Under the pieces are notes generated by a model. The model was given only the letters and a program-made list of their open reading frames with translations. It made no database searches and was not told the origin of the DNA. A stretch of DNA of 64,000 nt from Blasia pusilla (lineage: Eukaryota). The DNA lies in NCBI GenBank assembly GCA_050084515.1, contig CM114271.1, forward strand, positions 12,710,001-12,774,000. Reading direction: 5' to 3'. Of this stretch, positions 1 to 38,160 are shown in pieces (the first letter of the stretch is position 1; each line of letters begins with the position of its first letter). The translations under genes were made by a program, and so were the position numbers.

Positions 1-2464
1 TGGAGCCCTCACCCATTGCGTGGCCCACCATGGCTCGCATGAGCACTTACGGTCCTTATTTTTGTCCATTAGGACAAACATAAGTCTACGGACATGGACA
101 TGTCCGCGGACGCAAACTTTGTTCGTGTGCAACCTTGCAACCGATCATCAAGGCTCAAGACCCTGGAGGTAGAATCCAACTATAAAAATTGTATGGAAGT
201 CTACAAGCTTAGAGGACTTCTTTTTCGCTCTTCTTGAAATCTCAACATCAATCACTTTGAAAACTCATTAAGGCATCAAGCATATATTCTCAAGTCTCCA
301 AAATCTCTAAGATGAGATCAATATACCCCTTCAAAATCCTCCTTGATCTCTCTTAATTTCAAAAACCTTCAATCAACAATCAAAGTTTTCCACAACACCC
401 TTGCGCGTTTGACTTCACTTTCTGAGAGTTAAAGAAAGGATATGATAAGATTCAAATTCTGAAAGAAAACGCAACTTCCTATATTTCCAATGTTGTCTCA
501 ATCTCTTTACGCTCACATATAGAGCTCTCTCAAAGCTCCAAAATTTCTTCTTCAACTTTGTGCAACAGAATTCTTATGCCCCATTTCACTTCACAACGTC
601 TTTTGTGCTCTCTATTTTTTATCGTGATCTACAACCTAGTGTTTTGGAAGATTTTTTCTTCTTGGCTTTCCAATGTGCCTTTGATCTCCCCAAAAAATTT
701 CCATTTGCTCCTCTAAAAGGTGTTTTACTCTCGCTGAACTTATCTTTTCAAATCTATTTTAAGGAGCTCTTGCCATTTGACTACTTTTGAATGGTAAAGA
801 CTTTTAAAATCATCCTTGGTCAGTGTTAATACCTTGCCAATTTACTCAAGGTATTACGTTCTCTTTCTTTGAGATTTATTCTTGATCAAATCTTTACCAA
901 GATTCTTCGGCGGTCGACAGGGTAACATCGACACTGTTATTTTTTGGACGGCTGCTATGATGATTAACCTCCACCTTTTATCTTCTTTCCTTTTAAACTT
1001 TAGAAATCTTGTTTCTACTCTACGGGAGTATAGCCTTCATACTTGTTATGGGCTTCAACATCTTCTACCTTAGGTTTCAAAGGTTAGAAATCTCAATTTA
1101 GATGATCAAATTTACTTGTGGATTTAATCTTTAAAACCCATGTAAATTTAGAATATAGCTACACATTTACAATGCTATGATAATTAGACCGTATTGTTTT
1201 CTGAAGAGCTCAGCTACTATTTCATAGGTATAATCACTTGGAGACATACAAGGGTTGATTATAATGGCATTTGTTACACCCTAGTGTATAACTTCCTAAG
1301 ATGCTTAGAATCCAATAGCACCTTAAATTCCGTGTCATATTATAATTAGTACGTGGGCCAACACATAAGATGTTCGCCCTTTCCCCTAGGGGAAAGGTAA
1401 TCACTCGTAAAGGGGGCCGAGAGAATTTTTTTTTGGGGTTAAAAAAGCATGGTAAAACGTATTTACGAGAGAGGAGGAAACTCCTAAAGAGAAAAGAAGA
1501 TGTTTCTTTCTAATTCTAAGACTAAAATGAACAGGCGGGCCCAACTACGGTGGCGGTCCCACCGTAAGGCGAACTACTCTCTTCGTGGACGGAGGCGCTT
1601 GTCACGTGTCGTAGGCGAATCGGCTGATCCGGTTCAGCCGTAATCCGTGGCGGGAAGTGGTGGGTCCGGTGGGGCCCTCAGGGAAAGAAGCGAGGGGTCG
1701 TTTCATTTCATTTGACGGGGACAGTGACTGGCTACCACCACCTGCAGCTGAGCACATTTGCCTTTCATAGCAAAGCATGGAATCCCCGCCTTTCGTGCCG
1801 TATCTATGTCCGTATCTGTGCCCATTTATGAGCCTCCCTGCTACGACTAGCCTTGTGGCTTTCTGCGATTCTTCAAGCCTTTGGTTTGTATTCCGTTCCG
1901 GTCGGGACCGCACTCGCTTCATCTCACTCTGGTGGTTCGTCTCTTCTAAAATAATGAACTCTGGTGGTTCGCCTTTCTGGCCTGCAACGCTCCGCCTCGT
2001 TTGCTGATGAGTGAGTAGTGATTGGGTGGGTGGCGTTTCGTCGATTCTCTTGTGCTTCGCGATGATCTGGTGTCCGCGTTCTCATTTCTGGTAGCCGAGT
2101 CCACCGAGTGGGAGATCGTGCAGCAGCGATTGGTGGATTCTGCATGCGCAACGTCCTGGCCGAAGGCGAAGGGTTGTGTCGGCGCTGCTGTGGCTTCGAG
2201 ACTCGGTCTGTGCGTGAAGTTCTCTCGCCTTACATTTCGAGCGAGCTGTCGGAGACGGAGGATCGATTGGGATTGAGGAGCGGGTGAGTGAGGATTGGTT
2301 CTGCAGCAGCGGTGGGTTTGCTGGTGGTTTGAGCTGAGGAGAATCCATGGTCCCGTGAACGTTCGTGAGGTGGGAGGTAGAAGTGGTTCAAGTGGTTGGA
2401 GTAGCTCTTGAACCCGAAATCGCTTGAGATTTCCTTTGTCAGTGATTTAGTGCCGAGGGGTACC

Positions 2465-3826
2465 ATGGGTTTTGGTCCTGGAGATATACTGTCACTAATA
2501 TGGAGTCATCCCATAGCTTCGGTTATCGTGGCTCTTCTCTTCACCCCACCCTTGTTCCCAATCGTAGTGTTCTTCTCCCCGCTCCTGATTTCCACGGCCC
2601 TCGTCGTGCTCGCCATGGTTAGCATGGGCTCGGAGGTCGACGAAACTCCTAGTAACTACGGCAGCGATTCGCATTACAAGCGAGGTTGGCGGGAGCAGGA
2701 TTACGACGATGGCCGGGTATTCGATGACGACGAGGTCAAGAAGTCTCCAAAGAGACTCAGATCTTCGGCCCAGGAAGACGGATGGCTGAACAAGGTGAAG
2801 AGCTGGGAAGAAACTGGGCGAGCTTGGGTGGAGAGCGTCTTGCATCAGGAGGGATGGAAGGCCAGTCCGAACTCCAGCGGTGGAGCCGGAGAAACGCCAC
2901 CCCACACAATCGATCGCCAGAATGAGATCTTGAGCGTCGTATCAAACATCTCTCAGTCTATAAAGCAGACTTCTGATGCTTCGTCCAAAGTTTCGGATTC
3001 AAAATCCGAGTCCATATCTAAGCCTCTAGATTCCGCTTCCGATGTCACCCACAGAGGAGTGGCTTCCTCCAGCGACGCACCACGGGTCAAGCCAGAGAGC
3101 AGCCGGAAGATGAGCGAAATCACATCCGAGCCTGAACCCGAGGAAGAGCTGATCGAGTTAACTCCTCGCGACATGCACGGATTACCTCCATCGGCGAATT
3201 CGACCAGCAAGGGAAAGGAGAAGGTGGAGGATCTCCACCCCGAGGACAACAGAACTCAGGTGAAGTGGGACGAAGAACTACCAGTCAGCGGCGACGGCAC
3301 CAGCGGTGTCTTTGATCCCTCCAAGGAGTCAGCGATCGACAGCGCCTTCGGTGCGGCTCCTAAGACTGACACCGACGCCGCGGTCGAGCCGGATGCCTCT
3401 GGCGAGAAGACCAGCCATGGCGCTGGGGAAGCTCCTCCGGCCTCGGCGGCGGTGCGAGATCGAAGGGTGGAAAATATCGCGGTGAAGTCAGGCAGCGCTG
3501 AAGCGACGGGAGATTCCTCCGTCACTGCCGAGCACTCCTCCAGTCACCCCGCCGCCAAAGCGATCCGAGAACGTCGCGTGGAGCACCAGAGAACGCCGTC
3601 CGTCGCCGTGGAGCTTTCGGAGAAGCTCAACGTTCCTCTCGAGGATCTCATGTCGCTCCTCGCCGGAGACAAGGCCTCTACCTCCGGCGAGGTCCCTGTC
3701 GGCAAAGGTGTCTCGTCGTCGGAGACCACCACTTCGCAGGAGGAGGAATGGTCGAGCTCCGATGACGAGTCGTCTCAAGCAGCGCCCAAGGCCGACGAAA
3801 TTCAGCAGCCAGACAGGAAGAATTGA
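2465..3826 (+). CDS. Single-exon protein (~453 aa) with N-terminal hydrophobic membrane anchor and long acidic/Ser-rich disordered tail; function unknown
   Basis: Long uninterrupted GC-rich ORF. First ATG is at 2465 in accATGG context (the track's 2408 start is TTG). N-terminus SHPIASVIVALLFTPPLFPIVVFFSPLLISTALVVLAMVS resembles the HP...P...SP(V/L)L..TA.L anchor of some uncharacterised plant proteins. Confidence 0.75.
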   Translation: MGFGPGDILSLIWSHPIASVIVALLFTPPLFPIVVFFSPLLISTALVVLAMVSMGSEVDETPSNYGSDSHYKRGWREQDYDDGRVFDDDEVKKSPKRLRSSAQEDGWLNKVKSWEETGRAWVESVLHQEGWKASPNSSGGAGETPPHTIDRQNEILSVVSNISQSIKQTSDASSKVSDSKSESISKPLDSASDVTHRGVASSSDAPRVKPESSRKMSEITSEPEPEEELIELTPRDMHGLPPSANSTSKGKEKVEDLHPEDNRTQVKWDEELPVSGDGTSGVFDPSKESAIDSAFGAAPKTDTDAAVEPDASGEKTSHGAGEAPPASAAVRDRRVENIAVKSGSAEATGDSSVTAEHSSSHPAAKAIRERRVEHQRTPSVAVELSEKLNVPLEDLMSLLAGDKASTSGEVPVGKGVSSSETTTSQEEEWSSSDDESSQAAPKADEIQQPDRKN

Positions 3827-6800: not shown

Positions 6801-7358
6801 CTGGTTGTGACAACCATTCTTTGAATTGAATGAAATAGTTAAGAGATTTTTGCTAGAGAATTATTTTGTATTATATTTATAGATTTATTAAAAATAAATT
6901 AGTTATATTTTTAATTAAAAGATTCACTTCATAAAAGTCTAAAATTCAAGGGATTGAATAGTGATGTAGTGTTCAATATTGTCATTTCATTCTCACTAAA
7001 ATTTGGTTTAATTGTATTCTTTTAATTTGAATAAAATGGGAACATTTGTATGGATGACATATATCTAGAAGCACATGTGATAAAAAAGAACATTTTCACA
7101 GTTTTATAAATTAACTTGAAATTTTAGGCATATTCAGCCTTGATCAAGAGAAATGGAATAAATCAAATTTTGTGATAGGATAATCTACTCTTATGATAAG
7201 GTTGAATCAAGACTTTATCTATTCACAATCAAAAAATTACAAAACCTTAATTTCTACATAGTAGGGAGGGTGAGTTTGTCTATCTCAATATTTGGAATGG
7301 GGAGAGTGGCACTTTGAATGTTGTAGTCTCAAACTTATTTTTGATGCCTACAAAACCG

Positions 7359-7481
7359 TGTCGTGCGCATACACATCGCTACACATACATCGATGTCATT
7401 GAAGACACACACAAACACGCACGATCCCATGCTAACTCATGGCATCCAAATAACGAGACAAGAAGTACTAAAATATCTCCA
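7359..7481 (-). repeat. LTR segment A (123 bp, directly after the polypurine tract)
   Basis: On the minus strand the PPT GGGGAGAG-AT is followed by TGGAGAT...CGCACGACA. Closely similar to 18556-18681; its end matches 40351-40370. Confidence 0.85.
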
Positions 7482-7662
7482 ATCTCTCCCCTAGTTGGTG
7501 GTTAGGTCCCTCTAACTCCAGATAGCCATATATCCCTACCAACCATGACATCGGACACTAGGAGCAAGAAAGGCTGGGTGCTCATGTGGCCCCATCGTTA
7601 GTCGCCTTCCTGTCATCCATATTACAGAAAAAGTCGGAATCAAAACCTACCTAGTATCTCCT

Positions 7663-7815
7663 CTATGTATATCTGGGACACATCCATTGTCCTCGAGGAA
7701 CCCTAGTGAGAGGTGGTGTCAGACATGCCATATGCCAACCTCTCGAACATCCATCCCACACAAGCATCGTGGCCGCACCACGAGCAACACCACACAACAT
7801 ACAACGCAAGCCTGC
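7663..7815 (-). pseudogene. PHD finger at the integrase C-terminus
   Basis: LRCMLCG...MLVWDGCSRGWHMACLTPPLTRVPRGQWMCPRY fits the C4HC3 PHD pattern with two Cys mutated and the typical HxxCLxPPL..VP.G.W.CP. Confidence 0.85.
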
Positions 7816-7938
7816 ATGATCTACTGTACCATCAATGTTAGGAAGGTGACATGGCGCATAATTACGCACATGGTCCTTCCATACCATACCATCGCGTCCC
7901 TCCAGCAAGAGAACACCGGATGGAAAAACGCCACGCAC

Positions 7939-8700
7939 TCAAGGGATAGTGCGCCCAGGAGTCACATCCAACGTCGTCGGTACCGTCTGCTGCAAGTAGA
8001 CATAATCTCTCTGATGAAACCTTCGGATAGTTGGTCGACAACCACCACCCCCAATAGTCGCATACCTCAACGTATCCCGATGCTGCGCAATCGCCAAGTT
8101 CTCAAACGCCATGGGCATCACTCTCCAAAACAACTTAGCCCTCTGAGAACATGCTCGCATCAATACATCTGGGTCATCAAGGTCTAGCTCCTCATCAGCA
8201 TCTCGACGAATGGCCGCAGATAAATCTGGCTCTCGGCCATAAAGTAGCAAGTACGATGAAAAAGACGCTAAGGATGCCTGCCTGCTGAATCTGTATCCCA
8301 TCACCAACCACGGCAACCAGAGGTCCCAATCTCCCAGGTGACCTCTCTGTAAGCCATACTTGCGTAGACCCCTCTTCATCGTCTGCACAACTCTCTCCGC
8401 TAATCCATCCGCCTCAGGATGATCTCGTGAAGTCGTGCGGTGGTCGATCAACGCCTGATCACACAAGGCCTGGAACTCACCGCAAAACTTGGTACCCTCG
8501 TCTGTCAACACCTCAGCCGGTGCGCCATAATGACTCAACACTTTGTCAAGGAAGGCATAAGCTACTCCCTCACTCGCTTTGTCAGGAAATGCAACCAACT
8601 CGATCCACTTCGATAAGTGCTCGACCATCACAAGCCCAGAACGACTGTGACGCTCCGTCAAAGGCAAAGGTCTTGCAAAATCCAAAATCCATCTATACCC
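7939..8700 (-). pseudogene. Retroviral-type integrase core (rve)
   Basis: DFARPLP...VEHLSKW...GAPAEVLTDEGTKF...HPEADGLAERVVQT; D,D(35)E-type layout. Confidence 0.92.
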
Positions 8701-9263
8701 TTAGCCAATGATCGGTAATGGATGCAACTGTGGATTCGGAACATTGAACGATACTGAATCTGGAGCAAGCTGTACGTCCGCTTCACCCCAAAGTGACCCA
8801 ACTCCTCGTGGGCATGCTGCACTAGTCATGCTCTCTGTAGAGGATGTGGCACTACGCGTACTCTACCATCCTCTCAAACCCTCAAAACATGTGTCCCCTC
8901 CCAACTGAACCGTCTGGCCCGTTGTAGGATCTAATCCCGCTCTCTAGCACCCACGGTGCTTGCAACGCTGCATGAACGAAGGTACTCCAAGACTACTCCA
9001 TCATCATGAATATCTCAGCCACATGTCGTCTCCTCATTGGCCTCGGGATCCAAGGACTCTCTACTAGACCTCGCCATCGAAGTATCCACACTCTGGCTCT
9101 CCATAGCCAACATGCCTAAATAGGCTGATGCGTGCCATCCTGGAACTGACTCCTCATCACTCTCTCCATGCCATCGAGCTCTAGTCGCATCTCACTGACT
9201 CGGGCATGAGTTACGACTCAACCCAAATACATCTTGGTTGAGCATCCCAGATCTATGTACCAC

Positions 9264-10404
9264 CTAAAAATCATACTCCTGCAACAATAGAGCCCATCTC
9301 GCAAGCTTCCCTGTAAGCTTGTCGGACTCCATCAACCACTTCAGTGGTTGATGATCACTTATGATGATAAAGGGATTTCCGAATAAGTAACACCTGAAAT
9401 GCGCGAAAGCCCACATTGCAGCCAAGCACTCACCCTCATATGAGCTGTACTTCAACTTTGCAGCGTTGTTCGAGCGGCTAGCGTAAGCCACCACAAACTC
9501 TCTATCCTCCTCATCATGCTGGGTTAGCACCGCTCCAATCCCCAACATGCTCCAATATATGTGCAACTAGAAAGGACGCCCCCCCTGACTGGCCTCCTCA
9601 AGATGGGCGCAGACGTCAACCTGTCCTTGAGCAACTGAAATGCTTGCTGTTGCTCATCCCCCTAGTGCCACTCATGATCCACCTTGGTCAGCAAGGTTAG
9701 CGGCTTCGCAATCGAACTAAATCCCTTGACGTACCGCGGATAGAAGTTCGCCAATCCCATGAATGCGCGAACACGGCTCACATCTGTAGGGCGTGGAATG
9801 CATGAGATAGCCTCCACCTTCGTCTGCTGAACACCAAGGCCCCCTCGGTATATCGTATGACCCAAGTACTCAATCTGGTCGTAGAAGAACTTGCACTTGC
9901 CTGGATGTAGCTTCAGCCGATGTAATTGCAATCGTCAAAATGTCGCTCAAGCTCCTCAACCGTGGCGCTAAAGACTACGATGTCATCAAGATAACACCTA
10001 GCAAAATCCAGACCAGCCAAGATCCTATCAATGACGCTCTGAAACTCATCCGGGGCGTTCTTTAACCCAAATGGTAAGAACCGCCACTGGTACAAACAAT
10101 CCTTCCCGTGAGGATTGATGCCCCAAAATGCCGTCTTCTGCCTGTCATCCAATATGATAGGCAGCTGATGGTATCCGGCTCGCAAATCCAATGAACTGAA
10201 GACCTTTGCGTGACCAATCGCATCAAAGATCTTCTCAGGGGTGGGCATGGCATACCTATCAGACCTTGTCTGCCGATTGATAGGTCCGTAATCCCCACAC
10301 ATCCACCTATCGGTCCAGTTGCCATGCACATCCTTCTTGGCGGGCATGACAGTGGCAGATGCATACTCCCCATGGGACATCTCCACTAGTCCTGCTCTGA
10401 CCAA
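9264..10404 (-). pseudogene. Gypsy reverse transcriptase and RNase H (frameshifted)
   Basis: MCGDY, FSSLDLRAGYHQ, LPFGLKNAP, YLDD, KCKF...YLGH. RNase H: GIGAVLTQ...AYASR...YSSYEGECLA...SDHQPLKWL...GKLARWALLLQEYDF. Confidence 0.93.
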
Positions 10405-10979
10405 GTCTTGGCTCTACTCTGAATTAGAGCCCTCTCAATATCACTATACCTGTAGGGTCTTCGAAAGATCGGCGTATCACTCGACAACTCAATGCGGATC
10501 TCCGGTCCCTTCAGCGTACCCAAATCCTCCATGCTAAATGCAAAGCAGCTCCTATAACTCGTGAGGAACTGATGTATCCAGCGCTGCTCTCCTCCCGTCA
10601 ACTTAGGGCCCATATCTTGCTCCCAAGTCTCCATTGTGACTACGGTAGGACTCTCCGGCGCGGGTATCTGTGGTTTCTATGGTGCAACCCTGTCTCGAAC
10701 AACAACACTCGGTTGCTCTCTTGCAACCAACTGCAAACTCTCATCTCCCCCACATGCAGTGCCCGGAACCACGCTCGATGCTATGGCTATCATGTCCTGG
10801 CGTACTTGCAAAACATCCCAAGAAGTCCAAGGGTGTCTCTCCCAATCTCCCCTGGTGTGTAGATCTCCTTGGGTCTCGCCTCTAGCCCCTGCCTCCACCG
10901 TCTTGGTAGGCACGGGGCTCACCAACGCAACCACTGTGATCTGTCGCGATCTCATACAACGCTGCTCAGCCACTCCCAA

Positions 10980-11925
10980 GCTGAGGATCCATGTCAACCA
11001 GTTCAGGTCCATTGCCTGACCCAAGACATAGCGTCGTGATGCCTCTGACATTGACAGTACTGTCGTCACTCTTGTGGGAAATCCCATCGCTCGCTCTCTC
11101 TTGTTAGCATTGGGCTCCATCAACTGCTGAACCTGGTCATCCCAAACCAAGCCAGGACCGGCCTCCTTGTATGCATAGGAAGCGGGAAAAATCACAAACG
11201 TGGGCAAGGCTTCCCACGGCCTGCTTACCTCGTTGACCACAGTCAACGGTGGTCAATCATCGTGCCTCACTGCTTGTGATCGACGACCTGGATCCAAAAT
11301 GTAATCCAATAAAAAATGGGAGGGGCACTCCACCTCGCATCTGCCCTCCGTAACACCGCATGGGGCACCAAGTTGGTCCACCATAGACGTGGGCGATGGG
11401 CTATAGAACCTCACTCGCCACATCTAAGAACGCTATTGGGCTAATCCAGACACGCACATGATGAGCACTCGTCACCACCCGTGACTTGGAGTCTCCTAAG
11501 ATCAGCACATTCCTCAAGATTTAGGATGGAGAACGAGATTGGTGCTCATGCAACTGCCCTAAGACCCTCAACATCTCCCAAAACAACCTCGACCGAGTGT
11601 CAGCCAACTCGGTGCCTCGTCCAGCACTCGATTGGCCCTGACATGGCCAACCGAAAATGACCAAATCAATGGTCCCTACCCAATCTAAGTCCTACGCCCC
11701 CAACAACGGAATATCCCTCGGTAGGGAACTCTGGTACCCCTGTACCGCGGAGGCCGAGAATAAGTCAAGAAAACGTAAGCATAACTACGCCACATGTTGT
11801 AGTGAGATGTGCTTTGCAACATCATCACTCTCCACATACAGGTACTGATGCTCTCGCACTCCTGCCTGCAAAACAACAGCTAACCCGGGGCTAATCCCTC
11901 CAAAGAGATCTAACACTTGAATATC
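10980..11925 (-). pseudogene. C5-cytosine DNA methyltransferase domain (DNMT3-like) within the retrotransposon polyprotein
   Basis: Motif I VLDLFGGI (~11895-11920); IV IDLVIFGWPCQGQSSAG..L.D.RS.LFWE (~11575-11675); VI ILRNV for ENV (~11506-11520); VIII AHRPRLWWTNL (~11370-11402); IX RERAMGFP..T and X RRYVLGQAMD (~11000-11100). All are in canonical order. Confidence 0.88.
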
Positions 11926-12233
11926 TTCCTCCACGATACACCACACAATGGGTGTGGTATCCAAGGGTGTCATCATAGCACTCCCTGCTACCTCGGATTC
12001 CTTAAACCCGTCAAGCTCTGGTGCAAACGCCTCGCTCCACGCGGTCTGCACGTGCTCATCTGCCAATCGTCGAAGCTCCTCAGTCGAGCCCCATAACGAC
12101 ACCTCTCCTCCACGGAATCATGCGGCTACCATAACACTTCTCTCCATAGAAATGTCAGGAACGGGAGTATCCTCTGCATGGACATATCCCTCAATCAAAT
12201 CACCAGGCCAAGTGATGGCACTGCTAAATGCTG

Positions 12234-12630
12234 CTAAGGTTGCCACCTCTCACCTCTGCATCGAACGGGTAATGTGCTAAGGCGCCCATCACGTGACTGC
12301 CATCGTGGTCTGTAGGACGCTGACTCCTCCCAGTAATCCAGGGAAAACCCCATCGGGTATAACAGTGCTCCACCAACCAAGACGTCGTAGGACTCTACAT
12401 CAGTCACTATCGCCTTGGCTCGCACCACAGACTCATCAGTAGGATGTCTCGGGCGAATCCTCACCACGACCTCATGTCGGGTGATATACTGTGTGGTACT
12501 CGCTCCACCCAAGGATGTCTGTATCCGGAATGGAAAACGCTCCACATCAACTCTTGTCAAGCCCAATCCTCTGAATGATGCTTTCCCCACCATCAGGGGT
12601 TGTGCTCCTCAATCCAACAAGACGCGCTGT
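12234..12630 (-). pseudogene. Aspartic protease of the gypsy element
   Basis: RVLLD*GAQPLMVG (the sister copy at ~39575-39612 reads ILLDSGAQPLMLG) and YDVLVGGALL. Confidence 0.8.
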
Positions 12631-13518
12631 CGACTAAAAGCTCTACCTCCGGGACTCACCAACTGGAAGACCTCTCCTTGTTGATCCAGCTACACAACAC
12701 CAGGAGAAGCCATGGCACGCTCTATCGCGGGTCTAGCGGGGATCTCCGCCATCCTAGCAGCCGCAGCCTGCCATGAATATGACGTGGACGGCCTAAGCAT
12801 CCGCTCTAAGGGCAAGTCCATCACCTCCTCTGCAATCGCCTCTGAACGTGATGCAGGAACTCCAACTCCGCGCTCACATAATGAAGCGTCCAACGGAAAA
12901 GCCTCGGCGGGCGTACCCCCCAACGTCATAACATCGGAAGCAGAAAATAAAGGAGTGCGGTACACAACGGTGGCCACCCCCAACAACGTGCTTGACACAT
13001 GGCCCTCTTGAGCATAAAAAATAGGAGTTGTGGCACTCACTTCTCCTATTGCCCTCCGTGCGTGCACACCAACAACATTACCAATTGTCCAAGAACTTTG
13101 ATGCGGACCCATCGATGGAGTCCTCATCGCTTCGGACAACGTGAAAGACTTAAGAAGCTTAGTTTGTTTCTTGACTTCCCCTCGCTGTGGATCCAACTCT
13201 GCAACTGCTCCATGCATCTCAACTTTGGCTACCTCCATCTGGGCAACCAGGCACATCCAACCAGGATTCTCCATATCTCTGGCTGCTCCATATGATGTCG
13301 ATGCCACGGATACGGCATCGGGTAATCTCAATGCCATAACGACAATATGCTCATGTAGCTGATGTATCTGAGCAACCATCCTAGCCTCTTGCCCGGCATC
13401 TCCCTCGATGCATCTAGGTGGTAGGACTCTATCTCCTCTACGGGCAGCTCCACTACCGTGTCTGGCAACCACAGTTCCTCGTCCCCCAACGGGACTACCT
13501 GGTGCACGATTCTCTCTT

Positions 13519-14033
13519 TGTAAAGTAAGATCCAATCTCTCTCTACACCATCTCAGACCATAGCTCTCAAAGGTATGCACTCTCTCTCATGTCAAACCAA
13601 ACCCACTCTCCTAATGAAAGGCTTGTGTTACACTCACAAGGCAAGGGACCATAGCTCCGTTGCCTTATGCCAAGAGGTTCAACAAAGAGAGAGTGAGCTC
13701 TCAAGCTCTCTCTCTTGGAGGTATACTCCCTTCCCTCTCCCAAGCCCTCTCAACAGTAACCTATGCTCGCACGTCACCTCCTTGGCTCTTGAAAAACTAT
13801 AGCGGGTCAAGGGCCACTTCCCAAAGTGGAAAGTCAAGTATCCCCAACATGGAAACTTACTCGAAATAGTAAGTTTCTCTATATGGCTCCAAATGAGCCG
13901 AAACGAAGGGGAAACCTGCTCTCTCAGGTTTCGTGGGGTCTTGACAGGTCATCCTCGACCTCCTGGGTCTTTCCTACACTACTCGTGTAGACGCTCTGCT
14001 AGATCCCACCGATCTATCCTAATTGTCGTGACA
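13519..14033 (-). repeat. LTR segment B (~515 bp), 5' end of the DNMT-gypsy element
   Basis: Aligns along its length with 18683-19198. On the minus strand it begins TGTCAC and ends TTTACA, then runs directly into mid-gag sequence with no PBS. Confidence 0.85.
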
Positions 14034-14099
14034 ACCGCAACAATAGTTGACATACCATGATTACCAAATTGAGATTAAGTAATTGAAGAATTGGATTGC

Positions 14100-15550
14100 A
14101 CTAGAAAACCAGTTGAATTTTTTGGAAAACATGTTTTGCATCGCCAATTCTAATTGTTGTATTTTTGTATGATAGGCAAGTGCATCCATATATTCAAAAC
14201 CCAAAGTCTCTTTCACCAACCAAATTTTGAATCTAAATTAAAATAGTGGTGTTTGAGATCCCATTCTCAAATCCATCATTGTGATTGATTCTTGTGCTAA
14301 GTCCATCATTTCAATGAATCATACATATATCTAGAAGATTCTTGGTTCAAATTTAGTTATTTTAATTGAATTGAGTCAATTTCAATCTCATAAAAAAATA
14401 ACTAAATTTAAATATATTTCCAATCTTATAATTTGGATGTGGAACAAAATTTTATTTCTTTGATGATACAAAAGACCTTGTATTTTTGCACGTGGCACTT
14501 ATCAATTTTTTGTAAAGTCTTAGGGTTTTAAAAAAAAATTGCATACTCATTTTAAGACTTGCATAGCGGTGCATATACTTGGATCAATCAGAAGCAATAT
14601 TAGTCTTTGAAGGGAGGGTTGTACATGATAAAATAGTGGAACATGACCAACATCATCTATATTATCATGAGAGAGCGCCCTATTTGTTTTTGAACACTTG
14701 TACTTCTGACACATGGTGGTCTTAGCCACCATTAGCCTAACATGTGGCCTTAGGTCTGATGTTTAGGGTTGGTTTGAGAAGTCAATTAAGTTGACTCACA
14801 CGAGGTCAATTTTGGGATCAAGTCTATTGAAATGGCCAATCATAACCCTAACTCGTGCATAGACTAGTGATGAGGAAAAAAAGATTCACTATCCTCTATG
14901 TTGAGATGATGTGTCGCTCGAATGTCCCTATTTTCAGAATTTATGATAGCTCTTCTTTGGACATTTTTGCAGAGCTAGCCTTCCAATGCTAGCACCAAAA
15001 AAATTTCCATACCATTAGAATCTTGAAGTATGATCTCAACCTTTATTATTATTAGAGAAATTTTTTTGGATTTAGAAACATCCCTTTGATTGAAAAATGC
15101 CATTGGGGCAACAATATCTTATTTTGGTAATACTTGATAGAGAAATTTTCTGGCCACATGAGCAATAAGAATTTAAAGAAAATAAATTAACCATGATTGG
15201 CTTTGTACATATCATGTGTTCCATACTAGTGTTAGATAAACAAGCTTGCATGCTTGCATTTTGGTATCTAAAAAAAGGCTCATTGAAAGGTAAGAATTAC
15301 TTGAATGATCTAAAGCCAAATTATGAACAACTAGAAAATTGGTGATACTTTCATGAATTTCCCTTCGTTGGATGTCTCGCAACAAGATTCCATAAGTTCT
15401 CAAGCTTTTCAAAAGCTTTATGAGGATTTTCAATGTTGCTAGGAGGAGTGGAAGGTATTTCGAGTGTTGTCTCCGTGTAGGTGATGGATTCATTTTGTGA
15501 ATCCACACCTCCTTATTTTGCTTGTAGTCCCTTCCGTTCGGAAGGTAGTG
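14100..15550 (-). pseudogene. Possible heavily decayed hAT-like transposase remnant
   Basis: Only scattered fragments (e.g. RVMIGHF; HV...LQRLILL) loosely resemble hAT motifs; no intact frame. Confidence 0.25.
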
Positions 15551-18500
15551 GTATGGGAGGTCATGTTCTATTGATGAAGAATAACAATTAGTCTATGAGT
15601 TGTTAACAAGAGCCTTCAAGTAGACTTGCATCCTAACATTTTTAACTCAAAGAAAATCTAATAATTGAAAGAGGATGGGGTTAGAGAAACCTTCCTCCCA
15701 TGTTGCCACCTATCTTTTCAACATGTCCGATGTTGACATGTGTGACATGTTAAAGAAACAATAATTGAAAGACCAAAGATTGGACGGATGCCTAGAATCC
15801 TTTCCCCTCGCCAAACTAGAGCGGATCCCAAGAAATCATCGGTGTATGCTAGTACATACATATGTAAGTCACTTTCACAATCCCCAACATGTGCGCAAGC
15901 TCACTAGTTGTCAACATAGGTACATTTTAGCTTGTCTAAATTAAGAGCAAAATTCTACATGTTAAGAACATGTGTATAAACCATCTCCTTCTTGGGATTA
16001 CGTTAACTACAATAGCCACGCGAGATCCACTTCGGAAAAAAAATGCAAACATTGTGAATAGATGTCAAAACATGCCACAGAAATCAACCCCACTGCCATC
16101 CAATTCCTGACTATCGTTTCAAAGTTTTAAGTATGGAAGACTAACGAACAAATCGCCAGCACTGCACTTCCAATACCGAGCGAAAAAGTGTGAATCCAAA
16201 CCGCTACCATGTGCAAGGCTAACTGACAGCAGCACACTTCAAAAAAGATGACGGTAAACTATCACTCGTCCAATCTAATCTCTCTCGAAAAACGCACCTA
16301 AAACGATAACTCACTCGTCCAATTGCTGACTCTTGTTGCAATCTTGTACCTCGGCCATTCTCGGATTTGTGCTGATTTGCAGTTGAACTCCTCCATCGTT
16401 CCTCCGTGTCTAACAAAGGCTCCTGAAACACCACCTGCGGCTCGTGGCCGGTGAGCGGATCGTTACTCCGTGTCTAACAAAGGCTCCTGCTGTGGATGTG
16501 TTTTGGAATCTGGCACGCTTGTCAAACCCTAAAACCGAGGCAGAACCATCCGTTGTAGGGTATTAATACGACTTACCTTGGTTCTGTCTGTTCAGATGGA
16601 GGACGTAAAGTCTGCAAATGAATCAAGTCATTGAAAGGGCCGCTATTGCATTAATACTACTGTAGGAAGTTGGAACTCGATGGGATCTCGTGTGTCTGTT
16701 ATCGAACTGATAATATGTGCAATCCGTCTGTAAACTCCTTCTCTTTTCGCTTGTTTGAGAAACACCGCGGCTAACGCCTTTGAAGGAACTGACGGATGCT
16801 GTGCGGGATGCCTTTCGCCATCTGCCTTGAAGTGCCTTTCCTTCGTAAGGTTATGGCTGAGATTCGATTTACTGGATGGATCTGTTTCTTCCCGTTATGG
16901 ACTGTATTCCGAGTGCTACTGCGAGTGAATTCTTCCCATTCCGAGTATACAATGATCGTCTATGCCCGTCGCCAGTCGGGCAGAGCAGGAGCTGTGATAG
17001 AAGGTTACAGGATAAGAACTGGAACGTGAAGGAATCGGAATGGTTGCATTTGTGCTTCACTTACCGCAATCTGGCCGCTGGGTGTAGAAGTTGGGTCCGA
17101 TCGTGTTGTTCCGGAGGGTGCAGGTGAGGAGGCTGTTCGAGCGCTTCCTAGACGGACTGGAGGTGGAATGCTGATGGAAAGGAAGAGTGAATTGTGCGAT
17201 GAACACTCATAGAGATAACATTTGCAAGAGCGCATACAGCTTCCCGTGGTTTTTCGTATGTACGAAGCCCCTCCGGATCGTGACGAGTACTTGGATTTAG
17301 CGCGCAAGCTTGATCGATCACCAAACTTTTTGCTTCTGCGTTGCTCCGTCTCCGCAACAGGGAACGTGTGTCAGTCTCAGCTTCGCAAGGAGAACAGTAG
17401 GATTCAAAGGCGCTTCTTGCGAATTACCGACTATGTGCCAAATTCTGAAGGGCATGAATTCTCCTCGAGGAGCGGTTGTATCGGATCATGATCTGCAACA
17501 CGTGACCGCAGATTCCACTCCTGCACTCCTGCAGAAGTGGAATTGATATCTCGCGCATATGTCTGTCTGTTTCTTCCACTCGCAGCGATTCTACGGTCCC
17601 GACTCCATACTGCCCTCTAGAAACGGCTAAAATCTTTTTAATTCAAACGGGCTGCCGGTACCCGGTCCCTCCAGTTTCTTGCCGTTCAAACAATCAGGTT
17701 AGTCCAACCGGTGGACGAAGTCGATCGGTTTCACGCAACCGGGAAGTGAGTACTAGAACGATTTTCCGTGCACACAATTTTCTCTTAAATTAATACCAAA
17801 AATTGAGGGAGAATTTTCTTACTTGACTTAGCTCCTTGCAAGTCCCTGTTTGGGTCGGCGCGACCCCGCAAGGAGCTGGTTGGAAATAGTGGCGAGAGGG
17901 TCTTAAAACTCGTGCCCGGTGTATTCTGGGTGCGAATTTTATTGAGGTCCCAAGAGTTTCAACCGTTAGATAAGAAAAATCCGAACAAACATCTACGACC
18001 CTGGGGTCGGGTCCTAACAACCTCGGCCGCATGGGATTGGGTCCTTAGAGCCGGGTCCCATGGGTGGGATGTCGCAGCGACCTTCTTGGGTCGCCACTTT
18101 TTCTGCACATTTTTTGGGTGCAGAAATTGTCCAGCATCCTGGCGATGCTTCTCACTGTATATCTCTCGATTTCTGCTAAAAACTTGTGTACCTTCTTGGC
18201 TTGTCCTACGGAAATACAAATTGGTCCCGGAAATGAGGTTGCTGCGACCTCTACGGAGGCACCCGACCCTTATAATGTAGTTTTCCTTTTGAATCGCCTT
18301 GAGGCTTTCCTCCATACTCTCCAAGTTGCCGCACGGCAGTCTATGGACAAGCTACGGAATTGTGTATACGTATGAACTGACCGTAATGCCCAAGGGGTGC
18401 AAATGTATCTTTCCCAGACTTAGGCTTAGTCTCGTGCGACGCCATGACTTTGCTTGCATGGGTCAAAATGCACACGCAAAGGTACATCATTATATAAACG

Positions 18501-18555
18501 CTACCTCCAAGCATGATAATGTGAGCATGGTATATAGCGCCACCTTATAGTGAGA

Positions 18556-19198
18556 TGTCGTGCCCATATACATCGCTACACAACATACATCGATGTCAGC
18601 AAACACAGACACAAACACGCATGATCCCATGCTAACTCATGGCATCCAAACAACGAGACAAGAAGTACCAAAATATCTCCAATAAAGTAAGATCTAATCT
18701 CTCTCTACACAATCTCACACCATAGCTCTCAAAGGTGTGCACTCTCTCTCATGTTAAACCAAACCCACTCTCCTAATGAGAGGCTTGGGTTACACTCACA
18801 AGGCAAGGGACCATAGCTCCGCGGCCTCATGCCAAGAGCTTCAACAAATAGAGAATGAGCTCTCAAACTCTCTCTCCTTGGGATATATATCCCTCCCCTC
18901 TCCCAAGCTCTCTCCATGGTAACCTATTCTCCCAAGTCATCTCCTTGGCTCTTGACCTGATGTAGGAGGTCAAGGGCCACTTACCAAAAATAGAAAGTCG
19001 ATCCTATACTCAAAATGGTACTTACCTAAAATAGTAAGTTCCTCAATATGGCTCCAAATGAGCCAAAACGAAGGGGAAACCTGCTTTCTCAGGTTTCCCG
19101 GTGCCTCAGCAGGTCATCTTCGACCTCCTAGGACTCTCCTCCACTACTCTTGAAGACGTTCTACTAGATCTCACTGATCTATCCTAAAGGACGTAAGA
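18556..19198 (-). mobile_element. Non-coding 643-bp derivative (segment B joined directly to segment A) of the DNMT-gypsy family
   Basis: 18556-18681 matches 7359-7481 and 18683-19198 matches 13521-14033. Flanked by 4-bp TSD GAGA (18552-18555 and 19199-19202). Confidence 0.88.
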
Positions 19199-21510
19199 GA
19201 GATGTCTGCATTTGCATATTGTACATGCCAATGCACGAAATTGTCCCAACCATGATCCTCGGAAAGAATTTTTCGTGCCTACTAAATCCCACTGCTTGTG
19301 TAAGATCCGTATGCATTTAAGTTTCACTATGAGAATAAAATTCAAGAACACAATCCCCTTCTCACCACCAAAGAAACATAACTTCATATGAGTTGTGCAT
19401 ATATTTTACCTCGAGCAACATTGGAGCTTATTCTCCTAATATTATCAATGTGAAGGAAAATCAAAGGATGTCCCTATTTTGTCTTATTCTGTCACTATTT
19501 TATCTTCTTAGGCATGTGGGGTTGCCAATAATAGTATAGATGCGCAAACCTATGGCACGTTTCCCTTTCGTGCCTTTGTCTATCGCAAGGTTGAATTTGT
19601 GCGCCATTTCATGATAGATTAGGCGCGTACCACCATATCAAAATGATCAAGCAACATGTGTTGTGCAAGATGCAAATCACTAGCCTTTGTGATAGGCGGA
19701 GCGGCATATGCGACAAGAGACGTCATTAATGCCACTACTACACTCTGTCAATGTGTATACTACCCTTGAGATAGTGTATATAGCGTAGGTGGTGAAGGCG
19801 AACCTTAAAGAATAGTACACCATGGCAATGCAACACATTTAGCCACTTTCTTTTTGAATTCTCATTTTTTAATAAAAAAATATGGAAATGGAAAATATAC
19901 ATGAAAAAATTTGATATCAAATGAATGGATGGAGATACTCATGGAATATGGAAAATGAAGACCCTTGAAAAAAAGCAAATATGAAAATGGGAAAATCTGG
20001 TAAATGATGGGAATATGACATTTCAACAATGGAAAATGGAGACATAAAGTCATGGAGGAATTCCAAAATAGGTGAAATTTTCCAGCAGAAATAGGTGAAG
20101 TAAATTAAAAAATTGTAGGGAAAATTTCCCAGAAAATAATCATTCTGTCGCAAGCCTTTGGGATACACTCCAACCATGGAAATCTGATCGAAAAAGATTT
20201 TTGAGGGACATTCCAAAGATGGAAATATAGTTGTACAACTTTCCTACAACAAATTTTGGAGAACATTCTGAACAATCCCCTACAATCAAAATTTCACTCG
20301 TGTAACATCTTCGAAAATATGATCCAATCCTAGAAGTTAGCATACGATGAACTAATGAAGGAGTTGAAAATGAAAAAAGAAAAGACACAATCATTTTGGA
20401 CAGATACGCTCTTTATTTTTCATCCATTTGAAAGGGAAGGCAAAAAGGCTATCTTAATTAGACAAAAGATAAAATTATATGGAGTCCACAGCGAAGACAA
20501 TTATTAAGTGAATCTTATATCTTTTATAAAAGTTCTCTCCCAAAATGAGACATACGGGGTTATTCCTAGAATAAATCACACCGATGGCCACCACTTTAGG
20601 CCATAACGCATGATTCAACATGTAATTAGGAAGTAATGGGTATTACGACATGGCCAATGTACCGAGGAGATGGTTTTCATATCCTTGGCATATGTCGATA
20701 TGAGTTCTGAAGTGTTCATGATGAAGAATATTATTTTTGTATTACAACAATGCTATGTTTGGTTGGAGACTCGAGGTCTCATATTAGTCCCTTAGTGTGC
20801 AACCCTTGTTCGCGACTGGGCATGATGAGAATGTTGAAAACATTTGTTTGCAGCACATAATGGATTTTTGGAGCCCCTACTATGATAATTTCAATCAAAC
20901 AGTCATTCGGACATCAAGATAAGGTTCTCCAATTATAGTATAAATTAACCTGGGAAAGTCTGGACGAGCTGGGATCACAGGGATTCCTGGTGTTCACGCT
21001 ACTATTGATTGCCTTTTGAGACCAACTTTAATAGCGATTTTTAAAATGTCCATGGATCACATCCGCATGGTTATGTTTTCTCAAAAGAGAAGATTGATCT
21101 ACTCATCAGTCGCCATGTGGGTACAGATTCAAAACTGTGGGGCAGAAGGGGCATGGCCCCCATATTCTCATGGCCTGATCGAGCCCACTTCCATAGTGAG
21201 AACAACGTGGGCCTTCTAAGGAATCGAGCATGTGGTATGTGGTATGGACTCGGAAGAGTCGTGCTCCTCCAACAAGACAGCTATTAGAAGGCCGATTCTT
21301 AAATACCAATTGATCATTTAATGTGTTTGCTGTATTCTTCACATAAAAAGTCCCTTGGTAAAATTGAGTCATATCAGTGGTTGTGAGAGTATTTTTTACT
21401 TTTGCCCTTCTTGTTGTATTGTGATCATTCTGGTCGGTTTTCCAGGAGGAACGAAGAGTTCAAACGCAAAACATGGAGGGCGAGGAAGGCTATGCTCAAT
21501 TTACTGTCAA

Positions 21511-31984: not shown

Positions 31985-32424
31985 AAGGATATGCTCGAAA
32001 CAGGTTGCGTCATCACAAAATTTCAGCTTTTAGAATTCGGTCAATACACAATATACAGACTCCTCCACCATCTCAACCGTTTTCTCATGGAGGGGAGGCG
32101 ACGGACATCACGCCTCCAAATTTAAAGCAGCGGAACAAGCCCGATACACAGCAACCTTTAACCATGCACTAGGAATTTGACTCGGGGAGAACATGAGATG
32201 AAGAAAGGATATGCTCGAAACAGGTTGCGTCATCACAAAATTTCAGCTTTTAGAATTCGGTCAATACACAATATACAGACTCCTCCACCATCTCAACCGT
32301 TTTCTCATGGAGGGGAGGAGACGGACATCACGCCTCCAAATTTAAAGCAGCGGAACAAGCCCGATACACAGCAACCTTTAACCATGCACTAGGAATTTGA
32401 CTCAGGGAGAACATGAGATGAAGA
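31985..32424. repeat. Tandem duplication, 2 x 220 bp
   Basis: 31985-32204 and 32205-32424 differ at two positions that I can see (GAGGCG/GAGGAG, CTCGGG/CTCAGG). Confidence 0.95.
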
Positions 32425-32852: not shown

Positions 32853-34826
32853 TTAGAAGACGGCTGATTCAGCCTTTTCCCCGTTCCCGGCATTGCGCAA
32901 GTATGACCGCCTGTAAGCAAAGCCGTGATTGTCGCTTGAACCAGTCTGACTCCTCGCCGGATGGTCACGAAAAATTGATAGAAGAGCTACGGCTTTCTCT
33001 CTAGCACGGGGTGTACCATTCTCTGCCAGGCGCTGTAGCGCCTCCAAGATACCGGGTTGCTCCAATACTTGGGATTTGGCCCGTCCACTGTGAGGGGATA
33101 GCTGGAGGAGTGTTGCTGCAGCATGCTCCCGCACCTCGGCCCAGTTCACAGTCCTCTCCTCGCCGCGGACGACTTCATCATCCCTCGTGAGCAATCCCGC
33201 CAGCACCGGGATACCATGCTTCTCTCCAATGGCAGCACGACCCTCCTGAGTGGCTGCAATGTTGCAGAGAATCAAAAGCACCCTACTCACGACATCACTT
33301 CTTTCGTCATGCGCAATCCCTAAAAAAATTGCCACTCCACCGGCTCTGATCAGCTTGCTACGGTTCAGTGGTGAAAAGGATAGATGATAAAGTGCCATAG
33401 CGGCATCCCCCCTCGCCCCATGCTGTTCCGATCGCAACACGTGAATCAACGGGGGAATGGCACCCAACACTCCGATTGCCAGTTTGTTATCGTCGTTGAG
33501 GGCGAGACTGAAGATGGCGCCAGCGGCATGCTCCTGCGCTTCGGAGGCGCCGCTCTTGAGCACGTCAATGAGGGCTGGGATTGCCCCGGCTCGCGCTACC
33601 TTGAGCTTGTTATCTGACTCCAGAGAAATATTCATAACAGAGGCCACAATGTTGACTTGCACCATTGAGTAGCGGGACTGCAAGAGATTCCCAAGAGCAT
33701 TGAGAACATCGGGTTGGCACAAATCCAACCGATTCTGCGCACTAATCCGAGTGAGCCGTCGAATTTCCATCGCTGCCTGTTCCTGCTCCATGATTTGCGT
33801 ATGTTTCAACCCTTGGATCAGACGGTGCACTGTCTCATCGTCCAGGCGTCCATCAATTCCTGCAGAATTCCTGTTTCCACCATTTCGTCCTTCTGAAAGT
33901 AACTCAGCGTCGTAAGATGAAGGGGTGGTCGAGAGGGGCAGCGGTACCGCGGCGCGTGGGCTCTGCGTGTGGTCGTCCTTTCTAGGACCGATAATCATTG
34001 TTGACGAGTGCATGTATCTCATTGGAGGGGTCTCAATTTCGCTGCTGTGTAGCCGACCGGACGGGTTTTTCGAACTACTGCAAATCCCTGATGGGACCTC
34101 CTGATTATCGTCGCTCGTTTCTGCGGAACAGATGACATCTTTGGACTGCAAACTGATGGGAAGATGCTCGGAAGGATGCTCCCCACTTCGAGAGGATATC
34201 GACCGCCTACCGCTTGACGCACTAGAAGAGGGAGTATCAGAAACAAACGCCTTACGGAATCCACATGCGCGATCGACAGCGCTCTTCGCTGCATCCGGAC
34301 TAGGAGGAACAGGTCTGCTAATATTTCGGGAATGACACCAGTTTCCAATGGTCGTCTTCAAAGCCATGTTCGGAATGATAACATTAGGCTGGAGTTCTGT
34401 CCCTGTCACGAAGCACTGGCTGTGGCCAAGTTCGAAGTATATCTCGATAACTTTGCATTCGTATGTGATTCCCGATGATACAAGCACTGGCTCAGCCATG
34501 GGAAGCTTCGAGATTGGACAGTTCCACTCATCCATCCATGCATCTCCTGACGCTTCAAAATCTCCAGAAAAACTACCAGAATGGACCTCTTTCGTTCCAT
34601 CCGTTATTGCCACATTCGGCGGACAGCCTTCATCTCGATGAGGGGCCGGTTGAGCTCGTAAACTATCTGAGACTCCCGCTGAGGAATCACGCGTACTGAC
34701 TGCTTCAGAAGTTTTGACCACCACTACCCCTCTCTTCGCTCTAGGTCTCACAACGTTCGAGAAAAACTTCCGAATCGATCCCTTCTCCGGTTGAGGAACT
34801 TCTGGCCTTTGCATGGCCACCTCCAT
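32853..34826 (-). CDS. Plant U-box / armadillo-repeat E3 ubiquitin ligase (PUB38-41-like), single exon, 657 aa
   Basis: U-box: EWNCPISKLPMAEPVLVSSGITYE...CFVTG...IPNMALKTTIGNWC. ARM repeats: GAIPALIDVLKSG.SEAQEHAAGAIFSLALNDDNKLAIGVLGAIPPL...NGTPRAREKA. Confidence 0.93.
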   Translation of the reverse strand: MEVAMQRPEVPQPEKGSIRKFFSNVVRPRAKRGVVVVKTSEAVSTRDSSAGVSDSLRAQPAPHRDEGCPPNVAITDGTKEVHSGSFSGDFEASGDAWMDEWNCPISKLPMAEPVLVSSGITYECKVIEIYFELGHSQCFVTGTELQPNVIIPNMALKTTIGNWCHSRNISRPVPPSPDAAKSAVDRACGFRKAFVSDTPSSSASSGRRSISSRSGEHPSEHLPISLQSKDVICSAETSDDNQEVPSGICSSSKNPSGRLHSSEIETPPMRYMHSSTMIIGPRKDDHTQSPRAAVPLPLSTTPSSYDAELLSEGRNGGNRNSAGIDGRLDDETVHRLIQGLKHTQIMEQEQAAMEIRRLTRISAQNRLDLCQPDVLNALGNLLQSRYSMVQVNIVASVMNISLESDNKLKVARAGAIPALIDVLKSGASEAQEHAAGAIFSLALNDDNKLAIGVLGAIPPLIHVLRSEQHGARGDAAMALYHLSFSPLNRSKLIRAGGVAIFLGIAHDERSDVVSRVLLILCNIAATQEGRAAIGEKHGIPVLAGLLTRDDEVVRGEERTVNWAEVREHAAATLLQLSPHSGRAKSQVLEQPGILEALQRLAENGTPRAREKAVALLSIFRDHPARSQTGSSDNHGFAYRRSYLRNAGNGEKAESAVF

Positions 34827-38088: not shown

Positions 38089-38158
<70 letters not shown>
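38089..38158. repeat. (TC)35 microsatellite
   Basis: Perfect dinucleotide run. Confidence 0.98.

Positions 38159-38159
<1 letters not shown>

Positions 38160-38160
<1 letters not shown>

Follow-up and report, generated by a model that had tools for sequence, protein, structure and literature searches.

Introduction

Split direct repeats are usually taken as a hallmark of elements coding for a tyrosine recombinase and making no target-site duplications (TSDs), and TOC1 of Chlamydomonas is among the elements built in this way. According to passages of two articles (PMC4157794, PMC8969392), the PAT, Toc, Kangaroo, Ngaro, and Viper elements have split direct repeats in the order A1-internal-B1-A2-B2 together with a tyrosine recombinase and no TSD. 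The closest described system is KnitGypsy-Dnmt3 of the alga Klebsormidium nitens, for which a figure legend reports DIRS-like repeats (“A-coding region-B-A-B”) and the domains of a Gypsy element (de Mendoza et al, 2018, PMC5890265). In the part of that article that deals with the element, one sentence is given to these repeats, without end sequences, duplications, priming, or mechanism, and the titles and passages of the further literature consulted hold no description beyond this legend sentence. Here, we analysed a stretch of 64,000 nucleotides of Blasia pusilla (assembly GCA_050084515.1, contig CM114271.1, positions 12,710,001–12,774,000; the whole stretch is called the window), which is free of Ns, has the character of plant-like nuclear DNA and contains a long and a short copy of a retrotransposon with non-identical terminal blocks, named B (5′) and A (3′). 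These copies are probably decayed members of a Ty3/Gypsy clade with split, permuted repeats, of which the full provirus would read B-int-A-NN-B-A (int, internal region; NN, a 2-nt spacer) and the window would hold reduced forms.

The arrangement of the ends in this family recalls systems of other kinds as well. In retroviruses, use of the junction of circles with two long terminal repeats (LTRs) as an integrase substrate is the old circle-junction model. The foamy-virus integrase cuts the LTR–LTR palindrome; the retroviral palindrome arises only from ligated outer LTR edges, and the circles are mostly dead ends. The circle junctions of IS3/IS911, which are bacterial DNA elements without reverse transcription, also have abutted ends with a short spacer. 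Self-priming of reverse transcription is described for the Tf1/sushi/Tcn1 and TAR LTR retrotransposons in a passage of Neumann et al (2019, PMC6317226).

Results and Discussion

Two copies share both outer end points and carry 4-bp duplications

The region 7001–19500 was compared with the whole window by BLAST. The short copy matched one end of the long copy with 90% identity (18556–18683 and 7359–7483) and the other with 85% identity (18683–19187 and 13521–14022), and because the two matches overlap by 1 nt, the short copy consists of the two ends of the long copy joined to each other (Table 1). Besides these end matches, only a weak gag match at 39231–39533 was obtained, and no second copy of A or B was found near the long copy by BLAST within the window. 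On the coding strand, the sequence reads CGGT/TGTCACGAC…GCACGACA/CGGT for the long copy and TCTC/TCTTACGTC…GCACGACA/TCTC for the short one. A perfect 4-bp duplication thus flanks 2/2 window copies, with a chance of about 1/256 each, and the boundaries are fixed independently, on the one hand by aligning the long copy with the short one and on the other by the termini conserved in other families. The short TSD (4–6 bp) and TG..CA ends typical of Ty3/Gypsy elements were found in both copies, which end in TGTCAC…GACA (long) and TCTTAC…GACA (short), with the caveat that the 5′ hexamer of the short copy has two mismatches to TGTCAC. Two like LTRs in direct orientation, the other mark of such elements, do not bound the long copy. 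BLAST revealed no similarity between A and B of the long copy, and shuffled sequences matched the A–B alignment in 75 of 300 trials. An R region shared by A and B was considered and rejected, its similarity being not significant.

An earlier note on this DNA had described the non-identical TGTC…GACA ends and the ACCG duplication of the long copy and had read the 643-bp copy as B joined to A with the same outer end points and the duplication GAGA. BLAST and the coding-strand reading bore out both descriptions, and its outer coordinates, 7355 and 19202, were found to include the duplications; the elements themselves span 7359–14033 and 18556–19198.

The internal junction of the short copy (..CTTACTTT/ATTGGAG..) joins the U5 end to the U3 start without a primer-binding site (PBS), coding region, or polypurine tract (PPT), and it corresponds exactly to the B/PBS and PPT/A borders of the long copy. 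The short copy is this family's equivalent of a solo LTR, the “solo” form here being the permuted unit B/A and not a solo LTR.

Only 4.5 kb separates the two copies, which share an orientation and have a TSD each; this proximity could reflect chance, local targeting (perhaps through the PHD finger), or a single event that gave both as paired products. The Phygy group, which uses 4-bp NCGN targets, was also considered for these copies and set aside, as ACCG and GAGA do not fit NCGN.

Table 1. Features of the two element copies and of the related fragment in the window.
Feature	Position	Strand	Support or remark
TSD ACCG, left of long copy	7355–7358	.	same 4-mer at 14034–14037
Long copy, 6,675 bp: B, PBS, gag-(protease/DNA methyltransferase-like)-reverse transcriptase-RNase H-integrase-PHD, PPT, A	7359–14033	-	BLAST, Pfam
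A: 125-bp 3′-terminal block, start of U3, directly after PPT, ends ...GCACGACA	7359–7483	-	90% to 18556–18683
PPT, minus strand ..CTAGGGGAGAG	7484–7496	-	
Integrase core (7942–8700) and PHD finger (7666–7938), one frame, one stop between	7666–8700	-	Pfam rve 5.7e-09, PHD 2e-08
Reverse transcriptase (9916–10413) and RNase H (9267–9566)	9267–10413	-	Pfam RVT_1 1.4e-15, RT_RNaseH 6.5e-33
gag-protease region, broken by stops	10944–13028	-	tblastn with contig L002, gag similarity to related fragment
Putative self-priming PBS ACAAAGAGAGA, directly after B (U5) end	13511–13521	-	reverse complement of 13692–13682
B: 512-bp 5′-terminal block, starts TGTCACGAC, holds R-U5	13522–14033	-	85% to 18683–19187
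TSD ACCG, right of long copy	14034–14037	.	
TSD GAGA, left of short copy	18552–18555	.	
Short copy, 643 bp: B (19198–18684) directly joined to A (18683–18556)	18556–19198	-	
TSD GAGA, right of short copy	19199–19202	.	
Fragment of a distantly related family, without pol	38161–40905	+	
gag homologue of related fragment	~38577–39760	+	
PPT of related fragment	40233–40243	+	
A′ of related fragment	40244–40370	+	
Spacer CC of related fragment	40371–40372	+	
B′ of related fragment, TGTCAC..	40373 to ~40905	+	

The long copy belongs to an integrase clade with a C-terminal PHD finger

The long copy has the order protease-reverse transcriptase (RT)-RNase H-integrase with a DDE (rve) integrase, as expected of Ty3/Gypsy elements, and it is degenerate, with numerous stops and frameshifts. 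The D,D35E columns are invariant in the integrase alignment, the window row included. The chromodomain that chromoviruses carry at the integrase C-terminus is absent, and a PHD finger lies in its place. A scan of prokaryote genome contigs with the integrase alignment gave 10 loci, of which six (L001–L006; integrase identity 44–66%) are eukaryotic retrotransposon contigs that were binned into metagenome-assembled genomes (MAGs); the remaining four (L007–L010) contain unrelated integrases (28–30%) and were left out. The MAGs concerned are cyanobacterial, Mollicutes, Halorubrum, and Halanaerobiaceae ones, and the six contigs represent contamination of public genomes. The contig L002 is a cycle made by the assembler, its ends overlapping by 127 nt, and has intact open reading frames (ORFs), ORF1 coding for a protease and a C5 DNA methylase and ORF2 for RT-RNase H-integrase-PHD (Pfam), and both ORFs are colinear on the long copy from 13028 to 7672 (tblastn). 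On the minus strand, positions 11970–10944 are 38–43% identical to the segment of L002 ORF1 carrying PF00145 (C5 DNA methylase) and contain stops; hence, the liverwort-type family may descend from a methylase-carrying Gypsy element like that of Klebsormidium. The leader of L002 is about 1.2 kb long compared with about 0.3 kb in the window copy, and a run of about 25 A lies at 8150–8176 of L002, between U5/PBS and gag.

Pfam searches of 20 long-copy ORFs and of both L002 ORFs detected no tyrosine recombinase (Phage_integrase). Neither feature of the DIRS order, that is, a tyrosine recombinase and the lack of a TSD (according to a passage of PMC8969392), was therefore seen in this family. A DIRS1-style internal complementary region was also looked for and rejected, there being no internal copy of either end inside the long copy.

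The best matches of the window integrase are liverwort proteins (79% identity for the top match, 77% for Calypogeia fissa, and 61% for Marchantia), and an RT-RNase H-DNMT-integrase protein of K. nitens (DNMT, DNA methyltransferase) is 55% identical to it (E = 1.7e-74), which places the window element in kinship with the K. nitens element. The integrase tree was made from 52 rows: the window itself, five locus translations, and 46 hits. The latter remained from 50 that had been chosen among 94, after P0020, P0034, P0062, and P0078 had been left out because they had fewer than 150 aligned residues. All rows of the PHD type, including the window, L001–L005, and the K. nitens DNMT element, formed one clade (100/100), with two chromodomain Gypsy rows as a distant outgroup; chromodomain-bearing hits are only 31% identical. 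The window grouped with Marchantia and Calypogeia rows (100/97, six rows), and L001 and L002 fell in the same 22-row clade as the window (99/95). The K. nitens row stands just outside this 22-row clade on a long branch, so that its exact place is unsure, and L003–L005 lie further out. The signature of the clade is a DDE integrase with a C-terminal PHD finger, and some members also carry a DNA methylase.

A palindrome of abutted ends follows the PPT in related elements

The right and left termini of the element were found next to each other, as ..ACA-NN-TGTCAC, 56–126 nt after the PPT in 5/5 sequences covering this region, namely the related fragment at 38161–40905 and L001–L004; L005 and L006 end before it and do not enter the count. 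The sequence is ..CACGACA GC TGTCACG.. in L001 and L002 and ..CGTGACA GC TGTCACG.. in L003, and a 20-bp perfect palindrome surrounds the same core in L004. By chance, the strict motif is expected 0.005–0.055 times per contig and 0.28 times per window. The site is kept as a 10–20-bp palindrome down to elements whose integrases are 44–47% identical, and from the tree positions of the contigs that bear it, the palindrome is old in the clade.

The right end of an element together with its flank was obtained in L001, which contains integrase-PHD, PPT, A1 (2311–2416), GC, B2 (2419–2778), and A2 (2779–2884). A2 matches A1 with 100% identity and is followed, directly after its ..CACGACA terminus, by unrelated sequence of 21 nt. 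The B2/A2 border of L001 aligns with the PBS-defined U5 end of L002, so the U5/U3 junction seen in the short window copy occurs here again. The earlier note had held that the end points are recurrent and lie at an LTR-internal site; these end points are now seen to be shared by both window copies and by L001 at its right end, and the internal site is the one conserved in all five covering sequences. Among the related sequences outside the window, no left end with its flank was found.

The related fragment has a gag only about 68% identical to that of the long copy's family. Its PPT region is conserved, the PPT of the long copy and about 40 nt before it being 81% identical to 40200–40247, and the CTAGGGG.. 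motif of the PPT was also found in L001 and L002. The last 21 nt of A′ match A in 20 of 21 positions, a match expected 0 times by chance, and the fragment then reads ..CACAACA CC TGTCAC.., with CC-TGTCAC at 40371–40378. The PPT, the A′ end, and the CC-TGTCAC junction that had been proposed for this relative were thus upheld. Its B′ had also been called B-like, which is not supported beyond the hexamer; B′ was rejected as a homologue of B because shuffled sequences matched or beat the alignment in 101 of 300 and 23 of 300 trials, and only TGTCAC and the position are common to both. Within the window, the relative lacks a 5′ repeat, a second A′, and a copy of B′ upstream, and a PBS complement of at least 9 nt was not found in its upstream part. 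At about 40900 the GC skew falls, and the right boundary of the relative is explained by neither the split-repeat nor the canonical model. Exactly at its 5′ break lies a (CT)n microsatellite of about 35 units (38092–38160), and the R/PBS region of the family is CT/GA-rich too.

A candidate self-priming site adjoins B

The PBS-like sequence ACAAAGAGAGA (13521–13511) is the exact reverse complement of TCTCTCTTTGT (13692–13682), which lies 171 nt away in B, about 34 nt downstream of a TATA-like GTATAC (13726–13721), and is a putative RNA start and primer arm. In a sliding control, an 11-mer with a complement in the preceding 514 nt occurred at 1 of 6,151 positions of the element. The same layout was noticed in L002, whose 13-nt arms are separated by 176 nt and have a TATA-like box about 35 nt upstream. 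RNA folds from arm to arm paired the two arms in the minimum free energy and centroid structures (z = -2.5 and -3.1). In an unbiased scan, the arms of L002 were found 19 nt past the point where L001 and L002 diverge, and none was found with the divergence point taken as the B end. Complementarity of this kind is present in two of the four sequences examined (the long copy and L002) and would allow Tf1-like self-priming by the 5′ end of the element's own RNA. If the site is read in this way, B and U5 end together, and A and U3 begin together. A stretch that follows this PBS bears a possible likeness to a site of the tRNA-Gly type, a reading that was set aside; the window contains no tRNA gene and no Rfam match.

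A provirus with split, permuted repeats would account for both copies

The full provirus would have the order TSD-B1-PBS-gag/pol-PPT-A1-NN-B2-A2-TSD, which is A-coding-B-A-B in the published notation. Since U3 starts at A after the PPT and R-U5 stands at the end of B before the PBS, the reverse-transcribed “LTR” would read A-NN-B. The sites joined to host DNA would then be those of the internal ...ACA/NN/TGTCAC... and not the outer edges of the A-NN-B unit, so the right and left ends of the element would be abutted at an internal site, as in a circle junction. Such a provirus would be replication-competent in the ordinary way, its RNA running from R in B1 to R in B2 and its reverse transcription giving an A-NN-B unit at each cDNA end. 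For the return from cDNA to provirus, the outer cDNA ends would have to be joined (U5/U3) and one palindrome opened. The probable target of the integrase is the palindrome of abutted ends in circular or concatemeric cDNA. The enzyme would nick after each CA of ..ACA-NN-TGT.. and so produce recessed CA-3′OH ends that have 5′ overhangs of 2 nt, as retroviral ends do after processing, and insertion would follow with a 4-bp stagger.

The long copy would correspond to this provirus minus NN-B2-A2 and the short copy to B-A2. Homologous recombination between A1 and A2 or between B1 and B2 could produce them with the TSDs kept, as an analogue of solo-LTR formation; alternatively, a 1-LTR circle opened at the palindrome, or a 2-LTR circle cut at both, could have been integrated directly, and the sequence appears to fit the two routes equally. 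The family had been supposed to be non-canonical, as indeed it is, and to integrate from a 1-LTR circle opened at an internal CA-cc-TG site. The abutted site has been confirmed by its conservation, and the 1-LTR circle is not required, as the B-int-A-NN-B-A provirus, read from L001 and from the legend remark on KnitGypsy-Dnmt3, yields both copies by recombination. The other suggestion made at that time, of elements without true LTRs that form head-to-tail junctions, comes close to the split-direct-repeat layout.

Several points weigh against a provirus of this layout. The window holds only B-int-A, B/A, and the int-PPT-A′-CC-B′ fragment, no copy with the full B-int-A-NN-B-A layout being present in it, and the A1-GC-B2-A2/flank right end occurs only in L001; the layout is drawn from one 2.9-kb contaminant contig, which provides the right end, and from one figure legend. 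The related fragment apparently ends near the B′ end without a second A′, which would agree with a canonical 3′ LTR as well. The order in L002 and L003 is pol-PPT-A-GC-B-leader-gag, and collapsed canonical LTRs would assemble alike; in a collapsed assembly graph, this order is expected for a canonical and for a split-repeat element, and what lies downstream of B in L004 is uninformative on the layout. The self-priming arms lie in low-complexity CT/GA sequence, and the end points of the RNA folds were chosen at the arms, which favours their pairing. L003 has only a 12-nt pair at 350 nt and no clear TATA, and in L004 no self-priming pair of at least 10 nt was found. The circle, the transcript ends, and the integrase activity are all predictions from sequence.

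Other explanations of the two copies

Among the other explanations, the one that survives best, and that we still consider unlikely, is an ordinary LTR retrotransposon with the LTR A-NN-B and integration by its outer ends, of which the window copies would be rare mis-integrations at a cryptic internal CA/TG site. It stays alive through the order in L002 and L003 and through the relative, which seems to end close to the end of B′; in L002–L004 and in the relative, A-NN-B stands as one uninterrupted block, with the PPT on one side and the leader/gag on the other, and the outer edges of the unit can be read as TG...CA. However, in a random 64-kb window, 2/2 copies would be of the “rare” kind and none canonical, and the palindrome is conserved as deeply as is expected of an integrase site. 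An ordinary LTR would also leave the A2/flank end of L001 unexplained, and the K. nitens relative is described in the 2018 legend with DIRS-like repeats.

It is less probable still that the B...A units move as DNA, through excision by the integrase at TGTC/GACA and reinsertion, like a DDE transposon or by copy-out of the IS3 type. The abutted ends with their 2-nt spacer do resemble an IS circle junction, and the short copy has a duplication without a PBS or PPT of its own. Against this, the U5/U3 junction is a product of reverse transcription or of cDNA-end joining, no excision footprints were seen, and such a route is not called for by the data.

The notion that the 643-bp unit is the normal solo LTR of another element, and that the long copy is the same LTR split by a nested LTR-less Gypsy body, has very little in its favour apart from the solo-LTR-like TG..CA-type ends and 4-bp duplication of that unit. 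The PPT-A junction is kept in the family with about 68% gag identity and in L001–L004, and by this conservation A belongs with the body. B likewise belongs with it, as B holds the complement of the PBS that abuts B. The borders of the body are, moreover, without a duplication and overlap by 1 nt.

In the last alternative, canonical copies were truncated or internally deleted at random, and the 4-bp matches are due to chance. The shortness of the duplications and the age of the degenerate copies (85–90% mutual identity) might speak for it, and the earlier note had already argued against random deletion. It can be dismissed, because the junction of the short copy is exactly U5 end/U3 start, so that a deletion would have had to span precisely PBS through PPT, four breakpoints would have had to fall on one conserved site, the probability of two independent perfect 4-mers at homology-defined boundaries is about (1/256)^2, and L001 has the same B/A junction.

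Comparison with described elements and significance

The split-repeat layout that we favour is not new in kind because an element of a related alga has been reported with the same repeat order; the present copies extend the KnitGypsy-Dnmt3 type to a liverwort-type genome. The integrase of the window element belongs to the same clade as that of KnitGypsy-Dnmt3, both have the Gypsy domain composition, and the published A-coding-B-A-B order, as far as the legend gives it, matches the proposed B-int-A-NN-B-A and the right end of L001. The window copies differ from the algal element in that they come from a liverwort-like genome, carry a PHD finger, are reduced forms, and have a broken DNMT-like region. 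What is added here are the end sequences, the 4-bp duplications, the built-in palindrome, the U5/U3 junction, and a likely self-priming site.

In the proposed provirus, the repeat topology would be that of PAT, Toc, Kangaroo, Ngaro, and Viper, and the right and left ends would likewise abut internally, an arrangement suggestive of a circular or end-joined intermediate. Unlike the PAT/Ngaro type, the clade has a DDE integrase and 4-bp TSDs, and no tyrosine recombinase was found. The “LTR subparts” of the Chlamydomonas v6 paper were examined as a possible precedent and discarded, the expression being a curation term for LTR versus internal parts. The palindromic ..CA-NN-TG.. with both ends abutted is like the retroviral circle junction. 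In retroviruses, however, the palindrome comes from ligation of the outer LTR edges, whereas here it is built in and lies within U3, 56–126 nt from the PPT, and U5/U3 becomes an internal junction of the provirus. In IS3/IS911, too, a short spacer lies between abutted ends and a DDE enzyme with the same fold (rve) is at work, but nothing here points to copy-out from the chromosome. As in Tf1/sushi/Tcn1 and TAR, the putative PBS stands directly after U5 and has 11–13 nt of complementarity to the 5′ end predicted for the RNA of the element itself; the window element differs from them in its clade and in having no chromodomain, and its RNA start is a predicted one.

A wider proposal, which we offer tentatively, is that the whole clade, from green algae to liverworts, integrates through end-joined cDNA (2-LTR circles or concatemers) cut at the built-in palindrome in the manner of IS3-type transposases, by which split direct repeats and target duplications would arise together. 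If so, the circle-junction route, long abandoned as a model of retroviral integration, would have a natural representative in this clade, which might also form a structural bridge from Gypsy to DIRS/PAT elements. With this clade, the old 2-LTR-circle question, namely whether an integrase of the retroviral type is able to act on an internal site of abutted ends, can be tested directly. The same layout in combination with a DDE integrase and TSDs would separate repeat layout from recombinase and bear on the origin of DIRS-type elements from LTR elements. For annotation, the consequence is practical, as tools that seek two matching LTRs will miss or mis-cut such elements.

Other features of the window

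A U-box/ARM gene was identified by Pfam on the minus strand at 32856–34829, with best matches in liverworts (Marchantia, 48%; Calypogeia, 61% over partial length; Riccia); together with the integrase matches, these point to a liverwort, or else a near bryophyte, as the most likely source of the DNA. About 430 bp downstream of it, a 220-bp unit is present in tandem duplicate with 99% identity (31985–32424). An open frame of 473 amino acids lies on the plus strand at 2405–3823 in a GC-rich island (57% GC) and showed no significant Pfam match. A direct repeat of about 1.5 kb (49399–50872 and 61676–63151; 73–81% identity) has its copies 12.27 kb apart, and Pfam gave no hit in four sampled ORFs from 43.7–63.2 kb, two of which are between the copies. 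Each copy is followed by short tandem repeats, of 58-bp units at 51034–51454 and of 77-bp units at 63284–63437, which have a GCAACCCGTC-like core in common and form hairpins. Two inverted repeats resembling miniature inverted-repeat transposable elements were also noticed, one within 54742–55014 with 60-nt arms (95%) and a 153-nt loop and the other within 56354–56777 with 168-nt arms (82%) and an 88-nt loop.

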